Part shown: piece by piece, positions 1,414 through 49,294 of the stretch | Numbering within the stretch: the first letter of the stretch is position 1 | Layout: every line of letters begins with the position of its first letter | Assembly: GCA_964389465.1 (NCBI GenBank) | Contig: CAYMDK010000003.1 | Coordinates: forward strand, 4,148 to 68,147 | Reading direction: 5' to 3' | DNA length: 64,000 bases | Origin: an uncultured archaeon | GTDB lineage: Archaea > Thermoplasmatota > Poseidoniia > MGIII > CG-Epi1 | The notes under the pieces: generated by a model | What the model saw: only the letters and a program-made list of their open reading frames with translations | The model's database searches: none | Told to the model about the DNA's origin: nothing | Program-made: the position numbers and the translations under genes

Positions 1414-2297
1414 CAGGCGGCTTCCTCGACAAGGCAGGCGGAGAGGAACTGCATCAGGTCCAGCATCTCGAACGAGTGGTTGTGTTCGCCGGGGTCCATG
1501 CGCTCCTCGTTGAGCAGGCACTGCATGTGCATGTAGCACTTGGGACAGCCGCCCAGCATCACCTGGATTTCGGCGTCGGTGCCCTGGTCCAGCCGTTTCT
1601 TGCGCACCGCCTTGGTCGCGTCGTTGCAGTACATCATCGACGAGACGCCGCAGCAGAGCGCCTTCTCGCGGCTGTTCTCCAGCTCGACCATCTCGGCGCC
1701 GTCCACCAACTGGATAAGGTCGCGCGGCGCGTCATATTCGCCCATCATGCGGCCGAGCCGGCACGGGTCGTGGAAGCTGACGCGCACCGGTTCGGGTGAC
1801 TTGAACTTGAGACCGCGCCCGCGCAGAGTCTGCGTGATGTGCTCGACCTGGATGCCTTGGCCGGGCAGGTCGTAGTCGACCGCGAAGGTGCGGTAGCCTT
1901 CGGCGCAGGTGACGACGAGGGTGCGGATGCCGCTCTCCTGCATGCGGCGCAGGTTGTGCGCCTTCAGCTCGTCAAAGACCTCGAGCTGTCCTTGCCAGAG
2001 CTGGTCGTGCCCGCAGCACTTGAACGAGTTCATGTCGAGAATCAGCGGGTCGATGCCGGCGGCGTTCATCAGTTTGATAGCCGCCGCCGCAATCGAGGCG
2101 TGGTCGGCATCGCCTTTGTTCAGGTGCGAGAACTTGACTTCGACGTCCATGAAGTCGACGCAGCCGGGGAAGTAGCCGTATTCGTGCTGCCGCTCGGGCT
2201 GCCACGGCGCTTCGTCGGGCGTGTTGGCGTCGTTGATTATCATGCGCTCGAAGAGCGGGTGCGGAATGGTGCGGGCGTAGGGTTTGGTGCGACTCAT
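1413..2297 (-). CDS. HdrB-like protein with two CCG (Cys-rich) domains
   Basis: Two CCG-type motifs (PGCVDF...FKCCGHDQ and HDPCRLG...ALCCGVSS...GGCPKCYMHMQC), as in HdrB, SdhE-type, GlpC and LutA proteins. ORF 1413..2405 trimmed to ATG 2295-2297, which overlaps the upstream stop (ATGA). Confidence 0.8.
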   Translation of the reverse strand: MSRTKPYARTIPHPLFERMIINDANTPDEAPWQPERQHEYGYFPGCVDFMDVEVKFSHLNKGDADHASIAAAAIKLMNAAGIDPLILDMNSFKCCGHDQLWQGQLEVFDELKAHNLRRMQESGIRTLVVTCAEGYRTFAVDYDLPGQGIQVEHITQTLRGRGLKFKSPEPVRVSFHDPCRLGRMMGEYDAPRDLIQLVDGAEMVELENSREKALCCGVSSMMYCNDATKAVRKKRLDQGTDAEIQVMLGGCPKCYMHMQCLLNEERMDPGEHNHSFEMLDLMQFLSACLVEEAA

Positions 2298-3355
2298 GTT
2301 GGGGCTCCTTGCAGCGCAATTGCGCGTTGCTCGAGGACGTAATCTACGTATTCGATATTTTGCGGGCAGATGGCGGTGCACATGCCGCAGGTGATGCACG
2401 ACCACATCGCGACGCCGTCGTGCTCGTTCTGGAAAGTGTTGAAGATGATGTTCAGCTCCTCCTCACCCTCGTTGGTGCGCACCGGGCAGATGTCGTCGCA
2501 GAGGCCGCACTGGTAGCAGCGGTTGAGCTTGAACTCGTAGATGCGCTGCGTGCGGCGGCTGGTAATCCCGTTGCGGTACAGGTCGAAGCGCTCCTCATCA
2601 CTCTGCGGGCGGGCGCCCTCGGCGCGCCGCCGGTCGAGCCAGAGGTAGGTCAGTCCGGCGCACGCGAGTGGCCCCCATAGCGTCACCTGCGCCAGCACGT
2701 CGGTCGTGACGACCGGGTAATAAAGCGCGATGTTGGCGTTGATGGAGTAGATGGAAAGCATCACGACGAAGGCGAGCCCCCAGACGCCAATCGAGGCGCG
2801 GACGGGGTCCTCGATGGGGCGCCGCGCGTGGCCGGAGTTGAGGACGTCCATCATTGAGTCCTTCGGCCCGGGGTCAATCAGGTACCCCAGTGCCCGGTCG
2901 ATGAACGGGACCGCGACGACCATGCCGACAATCATCCCCTGCACCAGCGTCCCCCACACCTTGGCGGTCATCAGGAAGAAATGGTAACCGAAAATAGTGA
3001 ACTCGATGTCCCACGCCACCTTCAGGCAGCCAAACGCCCAGAGCAGGTACCAGTCCGGCAGCGGTGGCGGGAAGGCGGTCGCGGCGGCCGGGTCGGCCGC
3101 CCGGTGCAATGGCGGTGGAATGAACGCCGCCAGGAAGAAGAGGATGGATGTAACGTATAGCGTCAGCACGCTGTCGCGTATCAATTCGTGGGGGTAGAGC
3201 GGCTCGCCCTTGGCGTGCGACGCCTCGAGTACCGAGTGCGCCTGCCGCGGCGTCTCACCCGTAAATTCGGTCTTGCGCCCGATGCGCTCGGCAGCATCCT
3301 CCGCCTGCCGCTCCTGCTGGTATTCACCAATCAGATTCCCGGTGTCGTCGTCCAT
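2294..3355 (-). CDS. Cytochrome b C-terminal (subunit IV-like) membrane domain fused to an HdrC-like 2x[4Fe-4S] domain
   Basis: Has the PDWYLLWAF (PEWY-type Qo-site) motif and four predicted TM helices. The C-terminus carries CYQCGLCDDICP and CITCGMCTAICP. ORF 2294..3586 trimmed to ATG 3353-3355, overlapping the cyt b stop (ATGA). Confidence 0.8.
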   Translation of the reverse strand: MDDDTGNLIGEYQQERQAEDAAERIGRKTEFTGETPRQAHSVLEASHAKGEPLYPHELIRDSVLTLYVTSILFFLAAFIPPPLHRAADPAAATAFPPPLPDWYLLWAFGCLKVAWDIEFTIFGYHFFLMTAKVWGTLVQGMIVGMVVAVPFIDRALGYLIDPGPKDSMMDVLNSGHARRPIEDPVRASIGVWGLAFVVMLSIYSINANIALYYPVVTTDVLAQVTLWGPLACAGLTYLWLDRRRAEGARPQSDEERFDLYRNGITSRRTQRIYEFKLNRCYQCGLCDDICPVRTNEGEEELNIIFNTFQNEHDGVAMWSCITCGMCTAICPQNIEYVDYVLEQRAIALQGAPT

Positions 3356-4302
3356 CAGTGCGGCTCCGCCTCCCCCTGTATCCAGACCAGCGCCATGTGC
3401 AGCACCATCAGCGCGATTCCCACGACGGGCAGCACGAAGACGTGCAGCCAGTACATTCGCAGCACGGTCGTGCCGGTAAGCTGCGTCCCGCCGAAGACGA
3501 GTTGCGCCATCGGCGGCCCCATCGCCGGGATGGAGGTCGCCATCTCGAGCCCGATTGACCCGGCGGCAAAGCCCAGTTCGTCCCACGGCAGCAGGTAGCC
3601 GGTGTAGCCGAAGAAAATAGTCACCATCAGCAGGATGGAGCCGAGTATCCAGTTCAGCTCACGGGGATTACGGTAGGCGCCGACGAAGTAGACCCGCATC
3701 ATGTGCAGGAATACCGCCGCGACCATGAAGTGCGCCGCCCAGTGGTGCACCGCGCGCATGATGTAGCCGAAAGTGACTTCGGTCATGATGAGTTCCATCG
3801 ACTCGTATGCCCCAGAGGTCATCTCGCCGGTGACGGGGTCCTCGACGAAATCGCCGTCAGGGACGTAGTAAAAACCGAGATAGATGCCGGTAATGGTCAG
3901 GATGATGAACGCCAGGAACGAAAGCCCGCCGAGGCAGTAGAAGGGATACCAGTACCAGACCGCCTTGACGTTGTAGCGCTCGGTGTGCGACTGCGGGAAG
4001 GTGCGGCCGCTCGACGGTAGCAGCGTGAAGACCACCGAGTAGTACTCACGCCGTGCCAGGCTGGCGTAGCGGTGCAGCGCGAACCGCTCGTCGAGCCAGC
4101 TCCAGGTCGACAGCAGCACCTGCGGCAGAGCCCCGGTCGCCCACAGGAACGCGAAGCCGACCACTGCGCCGACCAGCGAAAGGAAAATCAGCAGGAAGGT
4201 GTAATCGCGCATGAACTCCTCCAGCAGTGGCGTCTCGGCGCGGGCACTCCCGGCCAGCGCCAGCAGCGCGAGGGCGGTTGCAGCCGCTATTGTCGTTCTC
4301 AT
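3355..4302 (-). CDS. Cytochrome b6-type (N-terminal half) dihaem cytochrome b with an extra N-terminal two-helix extension
   Basis: Contains RAVHHWAAHFMVAAVFLHMMRVYF and RMYWLHVFVLPVVGIALMVLHM, i.e. two His pairs with b6/Bacillus-type 14-residue spacing in helix D. Also GYLLPWDELGFAAG. Start ATG 4300-4302 overlaps the Rieske stop (ATGA). Confidence 0.85.
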   Translation of the reverse strand: MRTTIAAATALALLALAGSARAETPLLEEFMRDYTFLLIFLSLVGAVVGFAFLWATGALPQVLLSTWSWLDERFALHRYASLARREYYSVVFTLLPSSGRTFPQSHTERYNVKAVWYWYPFYCLGGLSFLAFIILTITGIYLGFYYVPDGDFVEDPVTGEMTSGAYESMELIMTEVTFGYIMRAVHHWAAHFMVAAVFLHMMRVYFVGAYRNPRELNWILGSILLMVTIFFGYTGYLLPWDELGFAAGSIGLEMATSIPAMGPPMAQLVFGGTQLTGTTVLRMYWLHVFVLPVVGIALMVLHMALVWIQGEAEPH

Positions 4303-4976
4303 CCCTGTCCGCAGTATTTCAGCCACTCCAGTTTATCAGTTCGCCCGACCAGTCCGCCGTCGCGCTCGATGACTGGCACAATCGGCAGCCCGTAGGGCGC
4401 CGGCCCCTCGACCAGCTCGGCGACCATCACCTGCCGCCCCAGCTCGTCGGTGTCCTCGATAATCGTGAGAGGGTCGAAGCGGCTCAGGTGGCAGGGGCAG
4501 AGGAACATGGTCTCGTAGGCCGCTCCGCTGAGGCTGCTGACTCCCTCTTCCATAAAGACCGGCTTGCAGCAGAGGTGCGGGCACTTGTAGGTGTGGTACG
4601 CCATCATCATCGCATTGCCGCCATCATCGGGGATACCCCATTCGGCCATTGCCTCCTCGGCCGGCAGCTTGACCAGCGTCAGTACCACCTCGCAGCTTCC
4701 CAGCTCCTGCTCCAGCTCCTCCGGCGCCCAGGTCACCATCGCCGACTGGTTGAGCGCAAAATCCTCCTTGCGTGCGACCTTGCCCGCCAGCGGCTCGTAC
4801 CAGCTGCCCGGCTCCCGCCGCTTGTAGAGCAGCGTGTCGTACGCTGCCTCGGGGTCGCAGCGGATGACGGGCGGCGGCAGCAGAGTCATCAGCGCCGGCA
4901 CCGAGAGCGCGCCGGTTATGCCACCCCCGGCGAGCGTCAGGGCGCCCTTCAGGAAATCGCGTCGCGTTACCGTCAT
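4299..4976 (-). CDS. Rieske [2Fe-2S] iron-sulfur protein with twin-arginine signal
   Basis: N-terminal MTVTRRDFLKGALTLAGGG is a Tat motif. Cluster boxes are CPHLCC and CPCHLSRF. Confidence 0.85.
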   Translation of the reverse strand: MTVTRRDFLKGALTLAGGGITGALSVPALMTLLPPPVIRCDPEAAYDTLLYKRREPGSWYEPLAGKVARKEDFALNQSAMVTWAPEELEQELGSCEVVLTLVKLPAEEAMAEWGIPDDGGNAMMMAYHTYKCPHLCCKPVFMEEGVSSLSGAAYETMFLCPCHLSRFDPLTIIEDTDELGRQVMVAELVEGPAPYGLPIVPVIERDGGLVGRTDKLEWLKYCGQG

Positions 4977-4977
4977 C

Positions 4978-5313
4978 TCACCGCTCCAGCCGCGGCACGA
5001 CCTTGTCGCGGCGGCGCTTGGTTTCGAGGACGTCGGGCAGGAAGCTGCGGCGGTAGAGGTCGAGCATCAGCCCGAACGTCAGCATCGCCATCCCGATGAT
5101 GAATGAGAGGAAAGTCTGGTCCCATCCCTCAATCAGCCCGAAGATGAAGAGCGCGTCGTAGAGTAGCTGCACCACCATCAGCAGCATGATAATCGCGAAA
5201 ATCGAGAGCTGTTCCGGTGCCGGTGTCTCGTGCCGGATTGCGCCGAGCTGCTCGTCACCACGGGTGCCGAGCAGCTTCTGCGCGTCCGCCTGCGTCAGCT
5301 CACCGCGAGCCAC
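4978..5313 (-). CDS. Small two-TM membrane protein (accessory subunit candidate); start uncertain
   Basis: ORF 4978..5409 begins with TTG and would overlap the upstream gene by 80 nt. An in-frame GTG at 5311-5313 lies 16 nt after the upstream stop (5330-5332). TM segments are LSIFAIIMLLMVVQLLYDALFIFGL and FLSFIIGMAMLTFGLMLDL. Confidence 0.4.
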   Translation of the reverse strand: MARGELTQADAQKLLGTRGDEQLGAIRHETPAPEQLSIFAIIMLLMVVQLLYDALFIFGLIEGWDQTFLSFIIGMAMLTFGLMLDLYRRSFLPDVLETKRRRDKVVPRLER

Positions 5314-5329
5314 CTGCTCGAGGATTTCG

Positions 5330-6025
5330 TTAACCTCGGTAATTGGCGCTCCCCCCTCGTAGTACGATGTACGCCAGCAGCACGAAGACCAGCGTGATGG
5401 CGATGCCAATCAGGCCAATCCAGTACTGCTTCAGGCTGACCCCAAGCTCGTGGATGCCCGCTTCGTCCTCCAGCGCCTGCGGCGTCCCGAGCGAGACCGC
5501 CACCAGCCGGGTCCACCCGTCGCCGGCGTCGTTGCCCTTCTCGCCGTTGACGACGTTGAAATAGAGGGTCAGCACCACGTCGCCGCTGCCCTCGTCGGGC
5601 GCGGTCCACGCCACTGTCCAGTTGCGCTGGTCGTTCGAGTCAGCGTTGTGCGAGAGCAGGCGGCCGCCGTCGCCGGTCCAGAAACCGTCGCCGCCGGCGA
5701 AGCTGCCGTTGGTGACGCGCAGCAGGAAGCCGCCCGCTGCCACCGGGTCGGCAGCGTCGGTGACGCCGGAATCGGCGATGGCGAGGCTCAGGTTGTAGGT
5801 CATCCCGGGCTCGTAGCGCGCCGGGAAGCCCTCAAGCGACCAGAGGCCGGTCTCGCTCTGGTCGACGTTGTGACAGCTGCAGCCGTTCAGCATCACGTCG
5901 GCGGCCCAGTCCTCGCCGCCAGTGTCGCCGCCTCCGGAATACCCGAATGCGCTTCCGCCCGTCAGGAGTGCGGCTGAAAGCAGTGCGAAAATCAGTCCGA
6001 AATCACGCCTTTTTCGAAGAGCCAA
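5330..6025 (-). CDS. Signal-peptide plus C-terminal-anchor protein with a single CxxCH motif (candidate monohaem c-type cytochrome, cyt f/c1 analogue)
   Basis: TTG start. N-terminal ALRKRRDFGLIFALLSAALLTGGSAFG, then NGCSCHNV, then a Gly/Asp/Thr/Val-rich region (probably a beta-sandwich), then the C-terminal TM YWIGLIGIAITLVFVLLAYIVL. First gene of the Rieske/cyt b operon. Confidence 0.6.
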   Translation of the reverse strand: MALRKRRDFGLIFALLSAALLTGGSAFGYSGGGDTGGEDWAADVMLNGCSCHNVDQSETGLWSLEGFPARYEPGMTYNLSLAIADSGVTDAADPVAAGGFLLRVTNGSFAGGDGFWTGDGGRLLSHNADSNDQRNWTVAWTAPDEGSGDVVLTLYFNVVNGEKGNDAGDGWTRLVAVSLGTPQALEDEAGIHELGVSLKQYWIGLIGIAITLVFVLLAYIVLRGGSANYRG

Positions 6026-6065
6026 CGATAACCTCCGGCAAGGTCGTCCGCGAGGACGGCTCGCC

Positions 6066-6080
6066 CTATATAATGATATT
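6066..6080. promoter_or_regulatory. AT-rich TATA-like element in a divergent intergenic region
   Basis: ctatataatgatatt is the only AT-rich patch between the divergent starts at 6025 (-) and 6122 (+), about 40-55 nt from each. Confidence 0.3.
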
Positions 6081-6121
6081 GAGAAGCAAGGTCGCTTTTA
6101 GCACGCGCTGGTTGCCCCGTC

Positions 6122-7717
6122 ATGGGCCGGCCTCTCCCCCGGGTTGCGGGCGCACTCCTAGTCGCGGTGGCGCTGCTGTTGCGCTGGCCCCTGACGCCGC
6201 GACCAACCGGCAGCGACAGCTTCGAGTATTTCGTGCAGGTCGCGTCGCTACGTGATGCCGGAGCGATGGAGTGGCTACTCCATCCCGCGGCGTATTTCGG
6301 GCTCTACCCCGGCACATCCCCGTCAGGCCATCTGGTGGTGACCGCCGCGTTCGAGGAGGTGACGGGGCTCGGCTTCGAGGAGTCGTCGCTGCTGCTTTCG
6401 CTCGCCATCTCACTGCTCGGCGTCGCCGGGATGTGGCTGCTGGCGGGCGAGCTGGGCGTCTCGCCCGCAGCGCGCTGGCTGGCGGCGCTCTCGTTCGCGG
6501 TCGCGCCGCGCTTCATCACTTTCGCGCTCTGGCGGCTTTCGCTGCGCTATCTGATGGTGATGCTGCTGCCGCTCTTCCTCTGGGCGCTGCTGCGCAGCCA
6601 GCATCGCCGCTACGGCCGCCATCCGGCACGGCTCATCGCGCTGGGGCTCGCGCTGGGGCTGGCGCTGCCGGCGGTCCACCGTATGGGGCTGCTGCTGCCG
6701 GGCTTCCTGCTGGCGTTCGCGCTCGCGGCGGCGCTCAGCCGCTGGCAGGCGGGCGCGCTCGACCGCGAGCGCGCAGCGCGGCAGGGGGTCGCATTCTGCG
6801 CCGGGCTCGGACTCTACCTCGCCTACCTCTCCTACCTCGGCGGCACGCTCTACGCCCCGTCGGAGGGACTCTTCAGCGTCTACCTTTTTGAGGGCGAAAC
6901 GCTGCCGGTGCGGTTCGCCAACCTCGCGGTGCATTATGGGCTGCTCGGCGGGCCGCTGCTGCTGCTGGCGCTGCTCGGTGCGGGCGGCACACTCCAGCAG
7001 GGGCGCCCGGCGCTGGCGACATGGCTGGCGCTGGCGTGGCTGGCGCTCGGCGCCTACGTCATCCTCGACCGGATTTACCTCGTCTACCTGCTACTGGTCG
7101 GGATGTTGCTACTGGTCGGACCGGGCGCCGAGATGCTGCTGCGTGAGCTGCCATCCCGTCGTGGCCGAGCGGCGCTGGTGGCGGCGCTATTCGTGCTGTC
7201 GGGAGTCTCGGCCGCGGTCGATCTGCGCGAGCGCATTGACCACATGGAGCGGCCGGAGACTGGCTACAGCTACCACGTGCGCGAGCCGACCATTGCCGCC
7301 GCATTCTGGGGTAGCGCGCACGCCGACGGCGAACTCTTCGAGGCGAACGACATCAAGCGCACGCGGAGGGCCGATGCCTACTCCGGGCTAATCGCGACGC
7401 GCGACGCGGATGCACTGGCACAGGGCGTAATCGACCCGGCCGCGATGGAACTGGAATACCTCGGCTGGCGCGAACTCTACTTCGAGACGCTGGACCATCT
7501 CTGGACGTGGGAAAACCGGGGCGAATTCCACGAAAACATCTCGGCTGACCGCAGCCTCTCGCTGGTGAACCTTGCCTTTCCCGAGGCAGTCGGCAGTGCC
7601 AGCATTCCCGAGTCCATCGTTGGCAGCACCCACTACCGCTGGCTCGACTGGTTCTGCTATCGCACCTACGCCAGCAACGAGCTCGCTTTCTACTGGAGTT
7701 ACGGCTACGCGGTGTGA
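6122..7717 (+). CDS. Polytopic membrane protein with a C-terminal soluble domain (possible GT-C-type glycosyltransferase)
   Basis: 531-aa ORF with an ATG start and more than 10 hydrophobic helices, followed by a roughly 170-aa hydrophilic tail. Architecture resembles ArnT/PMT-like enzymes, but no diagnostic motif was confirmed. Confidence 0.5.
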   Translation: MGRPLPRVAGALLVAVALLLRWPLTPRPTGSDSFEYFVQVASLRDAGAMEWLLHPAAYFGLYPGTSPSGHLVVTAAFEEVTGLGFEESSLLLSLAISLLGVAGMWLLAGELGVSPAARWLAALSFAVAPRFITFALWRLSLRYLMVMLLPLFLWALLRSQHRRYGRHPARLIALGLALGLALPAVHRMGLLLPGFLLAFALAAALSRWQAGALDRERAARQGVAFCAGLGLYLAYLSYLGGTLYAPSEGLFSVYLFEGETLPVRFANLAVHYGLLGGPLLLLALLGAGGTLQQGRPALATWLALAWLALGAYVILDRIYLVYLLLVGMLLLVGPGAEMLLRELPSRRGRAALVAALFVLSGVSAAVDLRERIDHMERPETGYSYHVREPTIAAAFWGSAHADGELFEANDIKRTRRADAYSGLIATRDADALAQGVIDPAAMELEYLGWRELYFETLDHLWTWENRGEFHENISADRSLSLVNLAFPEAVGSASIPESIVGSTHYRWLDWFCYRTYASNELAFYWSYGYAV

Positions 7718-22653: not shown

Positions 22654-23157
22654 TCAGCCCCGCCGTAGCACGAATACCGCAGCCAGTACCAGGATTCCGG
22701 TCAGCGCGACGCCGCCCCACGCCAGTTGCAGCGCCCATGCGGGCGTCGCCTCCTTGTCCTCGGCATGGATTGGCGGCGGCCGCACGACCGTTTCGTAGCT
22801 GGCCCAGATCGAGTCATCCTCGCCGGCGAAAGTGATGCTGAATTCCGCTTCGCCTTCACCCAGTTCGTGCGCGTCGGCGGGCGCCTGCCAGAAGAAGCTC
22901 CAGCCGTTGTCCGCAGCGCCGAATTGCAACTCGTGCGCCTCACCCTCGCCGAATTCATCCACGGCCGATAGCGAGCCGTTTGTGGTCGTGATTACGCTCC
23001 CCGTCACCGCGTCAGGGTCGCTCACTGTCAGCGTGACCTCGTACACCGCGCCGAGGGCGTAGTCGAGCGGCAGTCCGTCGACGCGATAGGTCGCCTCGCC
23101 GTTAGCCGCCGTAGCGATAAGCAACAGCACCAGCGTGCCGTATAGAATTCGCATCAT
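22654..23157 (-). CDS. Secreted, C-terminally anchored protein; Cys-free paralogue of the CxxCH domain
   Basis: Signal peptide MMRILYGTLVLLLIATAANG and C-terminal TM WGGVALTGILVLAAVFVL. The core aligns with 5330..6025 (GLPLDYALGAVYEVTLTVSD versus GFPARYEPGMTYNLSLAIAD; WSFFWQAP versus WTVAWTAP). Confidence 0.55.
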   Translation of the reverse strand: MMRILYGTLVLLLIATAANGEATYRVDGLPLDYALGAVYEVTLTVSDPDAVTGSVITTTNGSLSAVDEFGEGEAHELQFGAADNGWSFFWQAPADAHELGEGEAEFSITFAGEDDSIWASYETVVRPPPIHAEDKEATPAWALQLAWGGVALTGILVLAAVFVLRRG

Positions 23158-44743: not shown

Positions 44744-44827
44744 TCCTTGCGTGTGAACTGTCTGCGAGAGTGGCCAGTCCAACCGCTAAGGGAGGGCTTT
44801 CCTGTCTCACGCAACAAAGGTGTAAAC

Positions 44828-47800
44828 ATGCTGACACGTCGGCCCGAAAAGCTTCTGGCAGGAATACTGATGGTCACAGTGGTGGCCGTAATCATGGCGG
44901 GCTATGTCGAAGGCTCCCTGTTTGGCATAATCGAAACCGGTTATTCCGGCGCACCGGGCGACGATGACTGCACCTCCTGCCATGGCGATACAGACCCCAA
45001 CTCGGGCGGTTCGCAGGACATAATGTTCAGTGTCGCCGAGTACATACCGGGCGAAGATGTTGATATAAACGTCAACGTGAGCGGCGGTGGCCATGGGAAG
45101 TTCGGCTTCGAGATGGTTGTTATCGATGGTAACGGCGACTCGGTTGGCAATTTTTCGATTACGGTGGGTGACACCAACCTCAGCACCGCGTCAGACACCT
45201 ATGACTACATCATGAGCAACGCCAACGATGACGGCGTCGGCTACATGGTCTGGGACTTCGCTTGGTCACCTTCGGACTACCATGGGGATGTCACCTTCTA
45301 CGTCGCCAGTATGAGCTGTATCTGGGATGAGGATGAGTGTCAGGTGGGCGACGAGGAAGCATGGGATCAGAGCTATGCGCTGGTCCAGCAGAACCGCGCC
45401 CCGACCCTGACCGGCGGTCAGGTCTCCCCGGGAGCCGCCAGCTGGCCTGTCTCCGCGAGTGACACGGTGGTTTTCCAGGTCACCTACACCGATGAAGATG
45501 ACGACGCTCCCAGTGAGGTGCTGCTCTTCGTTGATGGTATTGGCTATTCCATGTCCTCCTCCAGCAGCAACGACGGTGATTACACCAACGGTGAGAATTA
45601 CGAATACACCTTCGATCAGGCGGGCGACCTCGGCCTCGGAATGCATACTTACTACTTCACCAGTTCTGACGGGGAGGATGGCGTAACCACCACTACCTCT
45701 AACGGCCCGCGGGTCAACGATGAGCCGGTGCTGAGCGCGATTGCGGCGACACCCTCAACGGTACAGCTGCCAATTAATTCCGCCACGATAACGGTAATCT
45801 ACACAGATGACAACAACCAGGCACCCGGTTCGATTACGCTCTGCGTCGGCGACGATAACCTGAGTGACGGCTGTGGTGGCACTGAAGTCGCAATGAGCGC
45901 CTCGGCGGGCGGCGACGGTGACTACACCAACGGTGAGCAGTACGAGTACACGCAGGTCTTCCCGGGTGGCAAGACGGTATTCGCTGCCAGCGCCAGTGAT
46001 GGCATGGACGACTCCAACACAGTTGCCGGCTCGGTCTGGGTCCGCACCGACATCCCGTGGCTCACCGACGCGGCAGTCTCCCCGACCAGTGGTGGCGAGG
46101 GCGATGACTTCAGTTTCTCGGTTCGCTACCACGAGTACAATGGCACCAACGCCTCGACCATCAGCGTGACGGTCGGTAGCAACTCCTTCTCGCTATCACG
46201 GACTAACGACTCGGAGAGCCCGGCTGACGCCGCTGGCGCCGAGTACGCCTACACTGGCGCCATGGCGTGGGGCGCTCACAGCGTGGCCTTCGACGCCAAC
46301 AACGGTGTCAACGATGCCGCGCAGCTCTCGGGCAGCTCGATTGCGGTCAACGATGCCCCCGCCTTCACCGCCAACGGCACTGCGACGCGCGTCAACGACA
46401 CCTACACTTTCACCGCCAGCGTCAGTGACGTTAACGAGGATGACGGCGACTCGCTGACCGTCTGGGCCGACATTGCGGACCACGGAATCCTGTTCCTTGT
46501 CAGCAACAACGACGGCACCTACTCGGCGAGCCTCGACCTGTCTGACCTGATTGACCGCGGCGGCGACCGCACGGCGACTTTCGGCGCCGAGGACAGCATC
46601 GGGGTGGCCGCGACCGGTGACGCCGGCACTGACACATTCTTCGTCGACTATGTCGGCGGCGCAGACCTAGACGAGCCGGCAGACACCTCGGGCGCGCCGG
46701 GCGACCGCACGGTCACCTTCACGATTACCAACAGCGGCAACGCCGATGACACCTACACGATTAGCGCCAGCGACGTTGCGTTTTGGGATTTGAGCTACCC
46801 GGCAACGGTTGACGTAGCCTACAACAGCTCAGCCACCTTCGACCTGACGGTCAGCGTCCCCTTCCTGGCTTACGGCGTATTGAACCAGCTCGACGTCGAT
46901 ATCGCGTCGCAGAACAACGGCACCGCGACCGATGCGCACAGCATGATGTATTCAGTCGGGCTAGTGCAGGGCGTCGCAGTCACTGCAGTTTCCAGCACGC
47001 AGGAGGGCGCACCGGACAGTTCCACGAGCCACACCTTCACGGTGCAGAACACCGGTAACTACGATAACACGTTCGCAATTTCAACCAGCAGCAGCTGGTC
47101 TTCAGATGCTTCCTCCAGCGGGATGTCACTCAGTATGGGTGAAGTGCGGCTGGTCACGGTCACGCACGACGTCCCCGCAGGCGCAGCGCACGGCGCGAGC
47201 GATACGGTCACGCTCACCGCGACCGGCGGCGCCAGCGCCAGCGACTCGGCCGACAGCAGCGCCGGGCTCGTGACCGGCTCGAGCATTTCGCTCGGAACGG
47301 TTTCAGCAGCGTATCCGGGCGACTCCTTCCAGGTTTCCGGCACCGTCACCAACACAGGTAACGGTGACGCGAGCTATGGCTTTGGTATCAGCGGCAACAG
47401 CGAGGCCAATGGCTGGGCGTCGCTGAACGCCACCTCTACCGGTGTTCTCGCCGCGGGTGGCAGCTTCGACTTCCGCGTCTGGATTGACGTCCCTGAAGAT
47501 ATTCCGGCTGGCGGCAGCTACTCAATCTCGGTCTCCACCGATGATGACAGCGCGAGCGCGACACTCGGCATCGCCAGCGACGCGCGCAGCGCAGGCGTGA
47601 GCGCGGCTGACGACAGCTTCCTGCTCAACCCCGGCACCTCGGCGACCACAGTCGTCACGGTGACCAACACCGGCAACGTTGCGACCAGCTACACCATCGT
47701 CGTCACCGACGGTCACGATAACCTGCGCTTCTCAACCACCAGCTTCCGCATCGCCAAGAGCGGTTTCCAGACGGTCCAGTTGACCGTCATGGTCCCGGCT

Positions 47801-49294
47801 GGCGCGACCGCAGCGAGCTCCGCCGGCTTCACGGTCACGCCGTCAATTGACGGTACTGGCGCTTCGCAGGCCATCTCGATTACTCCCAACCTGCCGCAGG
47901 ACACTTCCGGCTGGTTGCTCAGCACGGACGATACCATGGCTGGCTCCCCGCACACCTTCACGCTCTCCGGCGCCGACAGCGCGCTTGCGATAGACTGGGA
48001 TTTCGGCGACGGCAGCAGCATGGCTGACGGCGGCGCCTCGCAGGACCACACCTATGACATGGCGGGCGACTACACCATCTCGCTGGTCGCCACCGACGGC
48101 CTTGGACAGGTAACAAGTTTCAGCGCGGCGGTAACCGCCGGTAACAGCGCACCCTCGGTCCCGGCACCTTCGGTGAGCGAGGACGAGGGTATCACGATTG
48201 ACGGGAACACCGTCCGCGTGGTCGAGGAGCAGGCGGTCGAGTTTGTCCTGGCGGTCCCGACCGATGGCGACGGCAGCATTGCGATGCTGGTGGTCGACTT
48301 CGGCGACGGCTCGCAAATTTCCTTCAGCGGCAGTGACCTGACTGGTCAGGGCACGCTGAACCTGAAGCACGCCTATGCGGCGCCCGGCACCTATCAGGTG
48401 CAGGTCACCGCAGTTGACAATTCTGGTGCGGTGACTACCACAGTGGCTCAGGAAGTGGTGGTGGCGGAAGCCGAAAACGCCATTACGGTCGACAACTGGA
48501 ATCGCAGCTTCGCCCTGTTGGTGGGTGGGCTCGTTCTGGGCCTGCTAATGGCCGCCGCAGCGTATAATGTCCGCACGAGCGGATTCACTGGTGAAAGCAT
48601 GAACAAGCAAGAAAGAGCCCGTCTGTCAGAAGTCGAACAGCGCCTTGAGATCTCCAAAGGTCGCGAGGAACTGCTCGAGGTAGCAGCTTACGACGCATCC
48701 CGCGTCGCGACCAAGATGGAGGCCCACCTTTCGGCCTTCAACGAAATACTGGTCAAAGCCCAGCAGATTGCCGCCACCGAGCGGCTAGCCGAACTGGAGG
48801 CGGCCGAGGCAGCCGAAACTGCGGCAGCGGAGCAGCTCGAGCTTGACTTGGCCGACCCGGATATGGAGTTGCTCGCCGAGCGGTTCCACGGTACGCTGAC
48901 CAAGCTGGTCGACACCCGCACCGACCTAGGGCAGATTGAGGAACAGCTGGCTTACGTGCTCAAGATGGAGCGCGACGAGCAGTTCGCCAAGCTGACCGAG
49001 ATTACCGAGGCGTACGAATCAACCCAGCGTAAGATTGAGGCCATAGAATCTGTCCGCGCCGCGCGCGAAGAGGCGCGGGAGGAGACGAACCTGATGGACC
49101 TCCTGAGCGGCGGCGGTGCTGCAGCTGCTCCTGACGAGGACTTCGGTTTCGCTGACGACTACGACGACGAGCTGGGCGATGACGAAGAGGAGTACGAGGT
49201 CGAAATCTACGAGGACGAGGACGGCTCGTTCTACTACATCGACCCCGACTCGGGCGAAGAAGTTCCCTGCGACGAAGACGGCAACCCGCTCTGA
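44828..49294 (+). CDS. Giant (1488 aa) surface protein: N-terminal anchor/signal, CxxCH domain, many Ig-like (CARDB/COG1470-type) and PKD modules, TM helix, about 240-aa cytoplasmic coiled-coil and acidic tail
   Basis: ORF 44747..49294 trimmed to ATG 44828 (MLTRRPEKLLAGILMVTVVAVIMAG). Contains DDDCTSCHGD. Repeated xTVxNTGNxxDTY modules. PKD signatures IDWDFGDGS...HTYDMAGDYTISLVATD and VVDFGDGS...HAYAAPGTYQVQVTAVD. TM FALLVGGLVLGLLMAAAAY. Tail rich in heptad-like E/A/L/K, ending DDYDDELGDDEEEYEVEIYEDEDG. Confidence 0.85.
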   Translation: MLTRRPEKLLAGILMVTVVAVIMAGYVEGSLFGIIETGYSGAPGDDDCTSCHGDTDPNSGGSQDIMFSVAEYIPGEDVDINVNVSGGGHGKFGFEMVVIDGNGDSVGNFSITVGDTNLSTASDTYDYIMSNANDDGVGYMVWDFAWSPSDYHGDVTFYVASMSCIWDEDECQVGDEEAWDQSYALVQQNRAPTLTGGQVSPGAASWPVSASDTVVFQVTYTDEDDDAPSEVLLFVDGIGYSMSSSSSNDGDYTNGENYEYTFDQAGDLGLGMHTYYFTSSDGEDGVTTTTSNGPRVNDEPVLSAIAATPSTVQLPINSATITVIYTDDNNQAPGSITLCVGDDNLSDGCGGTEVAMSASAGGDGDYTNGEQYEYTQVFPGGKTVFAASASDGMDDSNTVAGSVWVRTDIPWLTDAAVSPTSGGEGDDFSFSVRYHEYNGTNASTISVTVGSNSFSLSRTNDSESPADAAGAEYAYTGAMAWGAHSVAFDANNGVNDAAQLSGSSIAVNDAPAFTANGTATRVNDTYTFTASVSDVNEDDGDSLTVWADIADHGILFLVSNNDGTYSASLDLSDLIDRGGDRTATFGAEDSIGVAATGDAGTDTFFVDYVGGADLDEPADTSGAPGDRTVTFTITNSGNADDTYTISASDVAFWDLSYPATVDVAYNSSATFDLTVSVPFLAYGVLNQLDVDIASQNNGTATDAHSMMYSVGLVQGVAVTAVSSTQEGAPDSSTSHTFTVQNTGNYDNTFAISTSSSWSSDASSSGMSLSMGEVRLVTVTHDVPAGAAHGASDTVTLTATGGASASDSADSSAGLVTGSSISLGTVSAAYPGDSFQVSGTVTNTGNGDASYGFGISGNSEANGWASLNATSTGVLAAGGSFDFRVWIDVPEDIPAGGSYSISVSTDDDSASATLGIASDARSAGVSAADDSFLLNPGTSATTVVTVTNTGNVATSYTIVVTDGHDNLRFSTTSFRIAKSGFQTVQLTVMVPAGATAASSAGFTVTPSIDGTGASQAISITPNLPQDTSGWLLSTDDTMAGSPHTFTLSGADSALAIDWDFGDGSSMADGGASQDHTYDMAGDYTISLVATDGLGQVTSFSAAVTAGNSAPSVPAPSVSEDEGITIDGNTVRVVEEQAVEFVLAVPTDGDGSIAMLVVDFGDGSQISFSGSDLTGQGTLNLKHAYAAPGTYQVQVTAVDNSGAVTTTVAQEVVVAEAENAITVDNWNRSFALLVGGLVLGLLMAAAAYNVRTSGFTGESMNKQERARLSEVEQRLEISKGREELLEVAAYDASRVATKMEAHLSAFNEILVKAQQIAATERLAELEAAEAAETAAAEQLELDLADPDMELLAERFHGTLTKLVDTRTDLGQIEEQLAYVLKMERDEQFAKLTEITEAYESTQRKIEAIESVRAAREEAREETNLMDLLSGGGAAAAPDEDFGFADDYDDELGDDEEEYEVEIYEDEDGSFYYIDPDSGEEVPCDEDGNPL

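Follow-up and report, generated by a model that had tools for sequence, protein, structure and literature searches.

The stretch of DNA analysed in this study, referred to below as the window, comprises 64,000 nucleotides from an uncultured archaeon of the class Poseidoniia, phylum Thermoplasmatota (lineage MGIII; assembly GCA_964389465.1, contig CAYMDK010000003.1, positions 4,148 to 68,147 of the forward strand), and the subject is the first gene of a respiratory operon on its minus strand, which encodes an exported, membrane-anchored protein with a Cys-x-Cys-His (CxCH) motif. The gene and the parts of its product are as follows.

5330 to 6025, minus strand: gene of the choice-of-anchor V (CoA-V) / Reeler-like CxCH protein, an open reading frame (ORF) of 231 amino acids plus stop that matches the family NF041895
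5942 to 6025, minus strand: signal peptide, residues 1-28, a hydrophobic leader with a predicted cut after A-F-G
5927 to 5941, minus strand: predicted mature N-terminus Y29-S-G-G32-G, family pattern X-(S/P)-x-G, which may supply an N-terminal amino ligand to haem
5870 to 5884, minus strand: G48-C49-S50-C51-H52 (GGC TGC AGC TGT CAC), the CxCH motif and proposed haem c attachment site
5471 to 5869, minus strand: beta-sandwich, residues 53-185, resembling Reeler and the cytochrome f large domain by AlphaFold2 strands and structure matches
5648 to 5650, minus strand: His126 of the family motif T-H-T, at least 90% conserved, alternative candidate for the sixth haem ligand
5360 to 5434, minus strand: C-terminal transmembrane anchor, residues ~198-222 (Q-Y-W-I-G-L...), AlphaFold2 helix 198-225
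5333 to 5359, minus strand: cytoplasmic tail R-G-G-S-A-N-Y-R-G, invariant in orthologs

The TTG at 6025 is the sole start codon within the first 30 codons of this ORF. The original prediction had seen in the product a signal peptide, a C-terminal transmembrane anchor, a body that is probably all-beta and a CxxCH motif. The first three are borne out by the ORF, the hydrophobic leader and the AlphaFold2 model, but the motif had been misread, as the codons spell C-S-C-H and the protein thus lacks the canonical CXXCH haem-binding motif.

The protein is a member of the NCBIfam family NF041895 (choice-of-anchor V), which it matched with 66.5 bits against a cut-off of 42 (E 2.7e-18), with residues 20-172 lying on positions 3-145 of the 150-position profile. 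Against the Pfam Reeler model (PF02014) it scored 14.2 bits (E 0.067), which is under the gathering cut-off of 21, while 58 of 125 family members touch that model at E up to 10 (best 1.8e-7); Reeler is therefore a distant relative of the CoA-V protein, which is not a Reeler member by score. An exhaustive phmmer search returned 536 representative clusters at E up to 1e-3, and with these the protein has the G-C-x-C-H, T-H-T and W...W-x-A-P core in common. In the ESM Atlas only its own family was found, under the automatic name "Reelin domain-containing protein". NF041895 is without functional annotation and most of its members carry a C-terminal sorting signal such as PGF-CTERM, LPXTG or a Por tail, whereas the protein studied here has a subunit-type anchor, a conserved cytoplasmic tail and a location in a respiratory operon. 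Close homologs numbered 73, and those that carry names are from Candidatus Poseidoniia archaeon or Thermoplasmatota.

In the AlphaFold2 model, whose mean predicted local distance difference test score is 88, the leader forms a helix at residues 3-21, the strands lie between residues 62 and 179 and the anchor is a helix at 198-225, so that the body is all-beta and consists of a single sandwich. The cleavage site is predicted three residues before the near-invariant G32, and positions -1 and -3 are thus G32-4 and G32-6. The signal-peptidase pattern at these positions is family-wide: of 124 sequences, 121 have A, G or S at -1, and position -3 is small or aliphatic. G32 itself, at a constant distance of 3 residues from the predicted site, occurs in 124 of the 125 sequences aligned. 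Across the family the first residue of the mature protein varies (Y, R, F, L, N, S, H or K), the second is S or P and the fourth is Gly, and the full-length orthologs from Marine Group II (MGII) have the same pattern X-(S/P)-x-G. The leader, judged from its sequence, points to ordinary Sec export with cleavage, which would place the body on the outward face. It had been thought that RKRRDFGL in the leader resembles the twin-arginine (Tat) motif of the adjacent Rieske protein, which would be odd for a protein that needs periplasmic haem attachment. This likeness did not survive comparison, as the orthologs read REKRDLGL, KQKGTYAL, RNTMNYSL and SSRSDVVM and the paired arginines are lost. Tat export was rejected for the CoA-V protein: the two arginines are found in the closest relatives only and are absent at 41-56% identity and in the MGII orthologs, and there was no match to TAT_signal, unlike for the Rieske protein. 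With a Sec-type -1/-3 pattern and an unconserved Tat-like leader the export route is compatible with attachment of haem in the periplasm.

The other end of the protein is also conserved. In the anchor Q200, Y201, W202 and L205 are invariant in the orthologs, and in the tail R223, G224, G225, S226, Y229, R230 and G231 are invariant in 22 orthologs. The MGII orthologs (L044-L057) have a related tail, R-Y-G-F-S-x-x-Y-x-G-R, extended as RYGFSxxYxGRSNLLRLRIKHLRRGDQ(L); anchor and tail are related in all 14, including one (L044) whose ORF was read from an internal ATG and lacks the N-terminus. A cytoplasmic tail that is so unusually conserved suggests contact with another subunit, perhaps with the iron-sulfur domain of the subunit IV fusion described below.

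The presence of CxCH alone is within chance, as 16 of 7,290 crude ORFs of the genome have one, and it is the conservation of the motif that makes it meaningful. It was invariant in 22 of 22 orthologs and was found as G-C-(T/L)-C-H in each of the 13 MGII orthologs read at full length, whose identity is about 30%, so the loss of Cys and His from orthologs, which had been named as one observation that would turn the reading towards a metal site or a disulfide, was not seen. In the 125-sequence family alignment the only invariant columns were C51, H52 and G99, and the columns conserved to at least 90% were G32, G48, C49, P68, Y77, F100, G107, H126, W136, W140, P143, N157, V159, G161, D169 and W171. 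Among 151 family representatives the motif is CxCH in 125 and CxxCH at the same place in 4, and elsewhere in the family the same alignment column holds Cx4CH, Cx6CH and AxCH, the last in P0080 and P0146. Natural haem c sites have a fixed Cys-His and a first Cys that is movable or dispensable (CXXCH, CX3CH, CX4CH, CX15CH and XXXCH). The fixed Cys-His and movable first Cys of this family thus resemble haem c sites and are difficult to explain by a metal site or a disulfide.

The same residues can be read in two other ways. One is that CxCH and His126 bind a metal, most plausibly copper, in which case the protein would be a blue-copper-like carrier or a copper-handling or chaperone module for the complex and the oxidase; we regard this as unlikely. 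It is in keeping with the conservation of two Cys and two His, but the spacing of the first Cys varies from 1 to 6 residues and Ala replaces it in some members, variation of a kind that metal sites would tolerate poorly, and His126 is Gln in about 6% of the members. The other is that haem is bound non-classically, either by one thioether through Cys51 or as non-covalent haem b on His52, with Cys49 put to another use. The AxCH variants in the family fit such binding, as does the consideration that a single residue between the two Cys may be too short for both vinyl groups to be reached, and single-Cys XXXCH cytochromes are known from euglenozoan mitochondria. However, C49 is at least 90% conserved in the family and invariant in all operon orthologs, and the link to cytochrome c maturation given below favours covalent attachment, and a non-classical haem seems improbable to us.

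Going downstream from the CoA-V gene the operon continues with four co-directional genes, and two putative signals precede it.

6031 to 6036, minus strand: Shine-Dalgarno-like GGAGGT, 5 nucleotides upstream of the TTG start
6067 to 6073, minus strand: TATA-like box TTATATA, about 45 nucleotides upstream of the first gene of the operon, a putative promoter by resemblance to the consensus only
4978 to 5409, minus strand: DUF7318 two-helix membrane protein (PF24002, E 2.1e-13), start uncertain
4299 to 4976, minus strand: Rieske iron-sulfur protein with the Tat leader TRRDFLKG (TIGR01409, E 6e-5) and weak Rieske family matches over CPCH
3355 to 4326, minus strand: b6-type cytochrome b, N-terminal half (PF00033, E 5e-37; NF002990 cytochrome b6, E 8e-54, below cut-off)
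2294 to 3355, minus strand: subunit IV-like half of cytochrome b fused to a 2x[4Fe-4S] domain (C-terminal part of bc1_QcrB, E 5e-10; Fer4 families, ~1e-10)

The place of the CoA-V gene as the first gene of an operon, as originally predicted, is confirmed by this arrangement. The order CoA-V, DUF7318, Rieske, cytochrome b was found in 30 of 30 loci, drawn from 30 genomes of its own family (48-88% identity), and the same order, followed by the subunit IV-Fer4 gene, in 14 of 14 ortholog loci from two other large families of Poseidoniia (26-34% identity), so that in total the gene order is kept in 44 of 44 ortholog loci of the class. The genome analysed here belongs to another order than these two families and is probably one of Marine Group III. 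In P0077, and apparently also in P0076 and P0086, a CoA-V protein is fused to two extra helices that match DUF7318 (BLASTP E 3.5e-5), which hints, by the Rosetta-stone argument, at an association of the two proteins. The in-frame starts of DUF7318 are TTG 5409, which overlaps the preceding gene by 80 nucleotides, and GTG 5313, with no others, and conservation among relatives already sets in at about residue 18, ahead of the GTG; the gene may use a non-standard start or be translationally coupled. DNA near-identical to 3300-6150 of the window is present in marine and brine metagenome runs of at least 5 studies. In one hydrothermal-vent RNA library there were contigs of a relative, about 92% identical, over 5288-5741 and over parts of the Rieske and cytochrome b genes, which is no proof of transcription, and the gaps in this cover of the operon carry no meaning.

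The operon also bears on a third reading, according to which the CoA-V protein has no redox role and is either a structural or assembly subunit or an ordinary surface protein co-transcribed by coincidence, with its cysteines forming a disulfide or a structural metal site. The metazoan Reeler domain is without a cofactor (PMC4429474) and NF041895 is named only for its variable cell-surface anchors, both of which suit such a role. The window itself holds a Reeler-like paralog without the motif, a 167-amino-acid exported, membrane-anchored protein at 22654-23157 on the minus strand, which matches NF041895 below cut-off (E 5e-7) and adjoins a pilin-like gene. A non-redox role nevertheless appears very unlikely to us, since the Cys-His and the N-terminal pattern are kept, the link to the operon is class-wide and persists at about 30% identity, the domain is fused to an oxidase subunit as shown below, and the maturation system of the genome would otherwise be substrate-less.

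This maturation system is of the cytochrome c maturation (Ccm) type. Its genes are absent from the window, as the original prediction had it, and Ccm matches were on other contigs of the genome (C2, C17 and C22, the window being on C3). The genome, whose assembly is 1.26 Mb, 65% G+C and 89.6% complete, has a Ccm set made up of CcmF (668 amino acids), CcmC, CcmE with the archaeal C-P-S-K-Y, and CcmB, that is, an archaeal-type System I, and the concern raised earlier that it might be without any maturation system is removed. A streamlined archaeal Ccm with a CXXXY CcmE is functional in Methanosarcina, where the cysteine of CXXXY is required (PMC9084895). Across 201 Thermoplasmatota genomes, 70 have NF041895 and 107 have the Ccm family PF01578, and PF01578 was present in 69 of the 70 genomes with the CoA-V domain compared to 38 of the 131 without it, although these genomes are related and not phylogenetically independent, so that the counts overstate independence. 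Every Ccm-less family named in the tallies was also without the CoA-V domain. This nesting of the domain, almost wholly, in Ccm-bearing genomes is a further point against copper.

When other possible substrates of Ccm were looked for, the classical cytochrome c families PF00034 and PF13442 had no match in the genome, where at 89.6% completeness one may be missed. Among 101 Poseidoniia genomes PF13442 was found in 2, once (G045) on a 1.5-kb contig that we treated as possible contamination. The sole exported CxxCH protein seen in a crude ORF scan of the genome was another paralog of the CoA-V protein, which lies in the window.

44885 to 45319, plus strand: paralogous CoA-V module with CxxCH (DDDCTSCHGD), NF041895 E 2.5e-19, at the N-terminus of a 1,515-amino-acid surface protein whose gene is at 44747-49294

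This module has diverged, as it is without the T-H-T histidine and without the usual N-terminal pattern, and it is followed by PKD and immunoglobulin-like domains.

The predicted model was compared with known structures in several ways. In a scan of 48,161 PDB representatives, which was independent of Foldseek, cytochrome f ranked first and second (Z 10.6 and 9.8 over 142-143 residues), ahead of cohesin (8.3) and reeler (8.1); thus the best PDB match in the search that followed the original prediction was cytochrome f. This top match had an rmsd (root mean square deviation) of 3.4 over 143 residues and placed model residues 31-183 on residues 1-248 of the chain. When VIA-align was run over the Foldseek list, cytochrome f was again first (Z 10.0-10.6), with model residues 31-185 on chain residues 1-250, or 178-180 residues when the anchor helix was included. 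In this alignment residue 1 of cytochrome f fell at model residue 31-32, so that the match spans the N-terminal segment with the haem motif. The copper-binding beta-sandwich YcnI was also among the fold matches (Z 7.0), which speaks for copper, but it was well below cytochrome f and there was no cupredoxin signature and no match to a Pfam copper family. Foldseek itself gave a different order, with the F-spondin reeler first (E 2e-7) and cytochrome f at about 2e-4, and when the family profile was run against PDB sequences the F-spondin reeler was the sole match (E 1.3e-3).

In its predicted features the protein is like cytochrome f in having a cleaved signal peptide, an N-terminal Cys...Cys-His, a beta-sandwich and a single C-terminal anchor. 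The spacing from the N-terminus to the motif is 20 residues in both (Y29 to C49 here and Y1 to C21 in cytochrome f), and both go with a Rieske protein and with a split b6-type cytochrome b plus subunit IV, known here from the genes. Cyanobacterial cytochromes f begin A-x-A|Y-P-F-W-A-Q, where Y-P parallels the variable residue followed by S or P at the N-terminus of the CoA-V family. Residue 1 of cytochrome f binds the haem iron as its sixth ligand through the alpha-amino group. As far as the sequences go, the placement of the N-terminus in the CoA-V protein is compatible with f-type amine ligation and is no proof of it, and His126 is the rival ligand. In homologues His126 is conserved to at least 90%, but it is replaced by Gln in two MGII operon orthologs (L055 and L056) among others, and on the aligned sequences these substitutions slightly disfavour an essential axial role for His126. 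The differences from cytochrome f are that it has CxxCH in place of CxCH and no known counterpart of the conserved His126, that its small domain is absent here (231 amino acids compared to about 285 mature residues, with 143 of about 250 soluble residues aligning), and that it is cyanobacterial whereas the host here is an archaeon.

At the sequence level the comparison used 20 cyanobacterial cytochromes f, obtained by a degenerate GRIVCANCH pattern, and the 125-sequence family alignment. When the two family profiles were aligned by hhalign (P 5e-4, probability 32%), GC-xCH was aligned with VCANCH and the alignment ran on through the first strands to GGF/GGL. Its score of 33.8 was higher than those of all 200 full column shuffles, the maximum of which was 23.2. 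As separate observations, weak below-cut-off matches to NF041895 (E up to 0.01) were seen in the Synechococcus elongatus and Deinococcus radiodurans controls, and the cyanobacterial one must be something other than cytochrome f because cytochrome f does not match this model. A plant-type cytochrome f in a metagenome-assembled genome labelled as an uncultured Clostridia bacterium (L087, CAMUZI010000037.1) looks like chloroplast DNA binned into a bacterial genome.

The CoA-V domain is found not only beside the Rieske and cytochrome b genes but also in the terminal oxidase of the same genome. On contig C1 (41167-44604, minus strand; L005) haem-copper oxidase subunit I (COX1, E 4.5e-152), whose gene comes immediately after COX2, carries at its N-terminus a signal peptide and a paralog of the domain with NGCNCH and the usual N-terminal pattern, and the arrangement COX2, CoA-V-COX1 is also present in three other Poseidoniia genomes (G066, G002 and G026) and in one of another Thermoplasmatota family (G200). 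A domain that is tied to complex III by its operon and to complex IV by a fusion is best explained as an electron-transfer module. That the partner in the fusion is a copper enzyme can be counted in favour of copper binding, as can the frequent use of copper partners such as halocyanin and sulfocyanin by archaeal Rieske/cytochrome b complexes. Cupredoxin genes are present in the genome, and one on contig C1 (45986-47419, plus strand; L009/L011), about 2 kb from the oxidase genes, encodes a 559-amino-acid protein with two plastocyanin-type copper domains, which may shuttle electrons from one complex to the other. The haem-bearing module that we favour can be compared with cytochrome c1 and with the cytochrome c domain of caa3 oxidases. 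It would occupy the same slot as cytochrome c1, that of a membrane-anchored, outward-facing haem protein accepting from the Rieske cluster, and the oxidase-fused paralog, like the domain of caa3, would be a built-in electron entry domain. These cytochromes have the class I all-alpha fold, CxxCH and Met ligation, unlike the all-beta model here, the CoA-V protein had no match to cytochrome c1 (PF02167), and in caa3 the cytochrome c is fused to subunit II whereas CoA-V is on subunit I.

Taking these lines together, we consider it probable, though well short of certain, that the CoA-V protein is the third, outward-facing and covalent-haem redox subunit of the Rieske/cytochrome b complex III, analogous to cytochrome f or c1, and we infer its membership of the complex, the haem binding, the ligands and the path of the electron. 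This retains the core of the original prediction, a c-type cytochrome in the c1/f position, as a candidate covalent-haem protein with an all-beta body unlike class I, and gives up its canonical motif. In a mechanism that would fit, Sec would export the protein, residues 1-28 would be removed, and the one C-terminal helix would hold the remainder in the membrane, while the conserved cytoplasmic tail and the neighbouring DUF7318 protein would tie it to the complex. At C49-x-C51-H52 the archaeal Ccm would join a single haem covalently to the protein; His52 would be its proximal ligand, and the sixth position would be taken by the alpha-amino group that cleavage frees on Tyr29, in the manner of cytochrome f, or else by His126. 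The haem may then take an electron from the mobile Rieske cluster after quinol oxidation and pass it to cupredoxins, to the CoA-V domain fused to oxidase subunit I, or to both.

Several observations weigh against this conclusion. CxCH is no recognised haem c motif and a CXCH variant was reportedly left unmatured by the Ccm system of E. coli; His126, one of the two candidates for the sixth ligand, is Gln in some orthologs. The incompleteness of the genome, in which a classical cytochrome c may have escaped notice, and the relatedness of the genomes behind the Ccm counts belong here too. The non-haem F-spondin reeler fits the model about as well as cytochrome f does (VIA-align Z 9.7-10.0, and 8.1-10.0 overall), and the beta-sandwich is a widespread fold. 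When the six columns of the VCANCH block were kept and the rest shuffled, the mean hhalign score was 24.2 and 2 of 150 shuffles reached 33.8. Cytochromes f, which score 458-561 bits on their own model NF002736, had no match to NF041895, and the CoA-V protein had none at E up to 1 to the cytochrome f models NF002736 and Pfam Apocytochr_F. By these block-preserving shuffles most of the hhalign signal is the motif, and we do not claim sequence homology to cytochrome f: the idea was rejected as a claim because the signal beyond the motif is marginal and no hidden Markov model matches either way. Our verdict is that the CoA-V protein would work like cytochrome f and in its predicted structure looks like it, and that its membership of that family by sequence is not established.

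A literature search returned no report of CxCH as a haem motif, of NF041895, or of a link between cytochrome f and reeler. The closest prior description is that of the reelin-N-fold cytochromes of Kletzin et al. 2015 (PMC4429474), who surveyed archaea by the CxxCH pattern and predicted monohaem cytochromes c with this fold in Desulfurococcales, which they called hypothetical. Those proteins (Igni_0579/0759 and Igni_1052), compared here by description only, are likewise small, exported and archaeal, were modelled on F-spondin reelin-N, and have an N-terminal Cys/Cys/His site, a conserved downstream His (His111) proposed as the distal ligand and, in some, a C-terminal helix. They differ in having the canonical CxxCH, and neither an operon link to Rieske and cytochrome b nor a resemblance to cytochrome f was described for them.

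A wider reading, which we offer tentatively and ourselves find rather doubtful, is that the choice-of-anchor V / Reeler-like family as a whole is a large unrecognised class of beta-sandwich c-type cytochromes with a new CxCH motif, matured by the archaeal Ccm, and that cytochrome f is a divergent member of it. If this were true, the f-type subunit would not be a cyanobacterial invention and would have a common origin with the archaeal Rieske/cytochrome b subunit, and the CoA-V module would be a general respiratory electron carrier of Poseidoniia, at work in complex III, in the oxidase and in surface proteins. Should haem be bound, CxCH would be a new natural haem c motif that is missed by CxxCH searches such as that of PMC4429474, and the counts of archaeal and bacterial cytochromes c would need revising, as this family alone has 536 representative clusters. 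For the MGII archaea, cytochrome b and Rieske have been reported and the canonical bc1 is lacking (Tully 2019, PMC6336850). The missing electron-accepting subunit may be the CoA-V protein, and electrons may enter the oxidase by way of the paralog fused to it. Marine Group II/III, whose archaea have not been brought into culture, supplies some of the most abundant surface-ocean heterotrophs. No relatives of cytochrome f are known to have been described outside oxygenic phototrophs, and the resemblance of the CoA-V protein to it opens a route to the question of the origin of that subunit.

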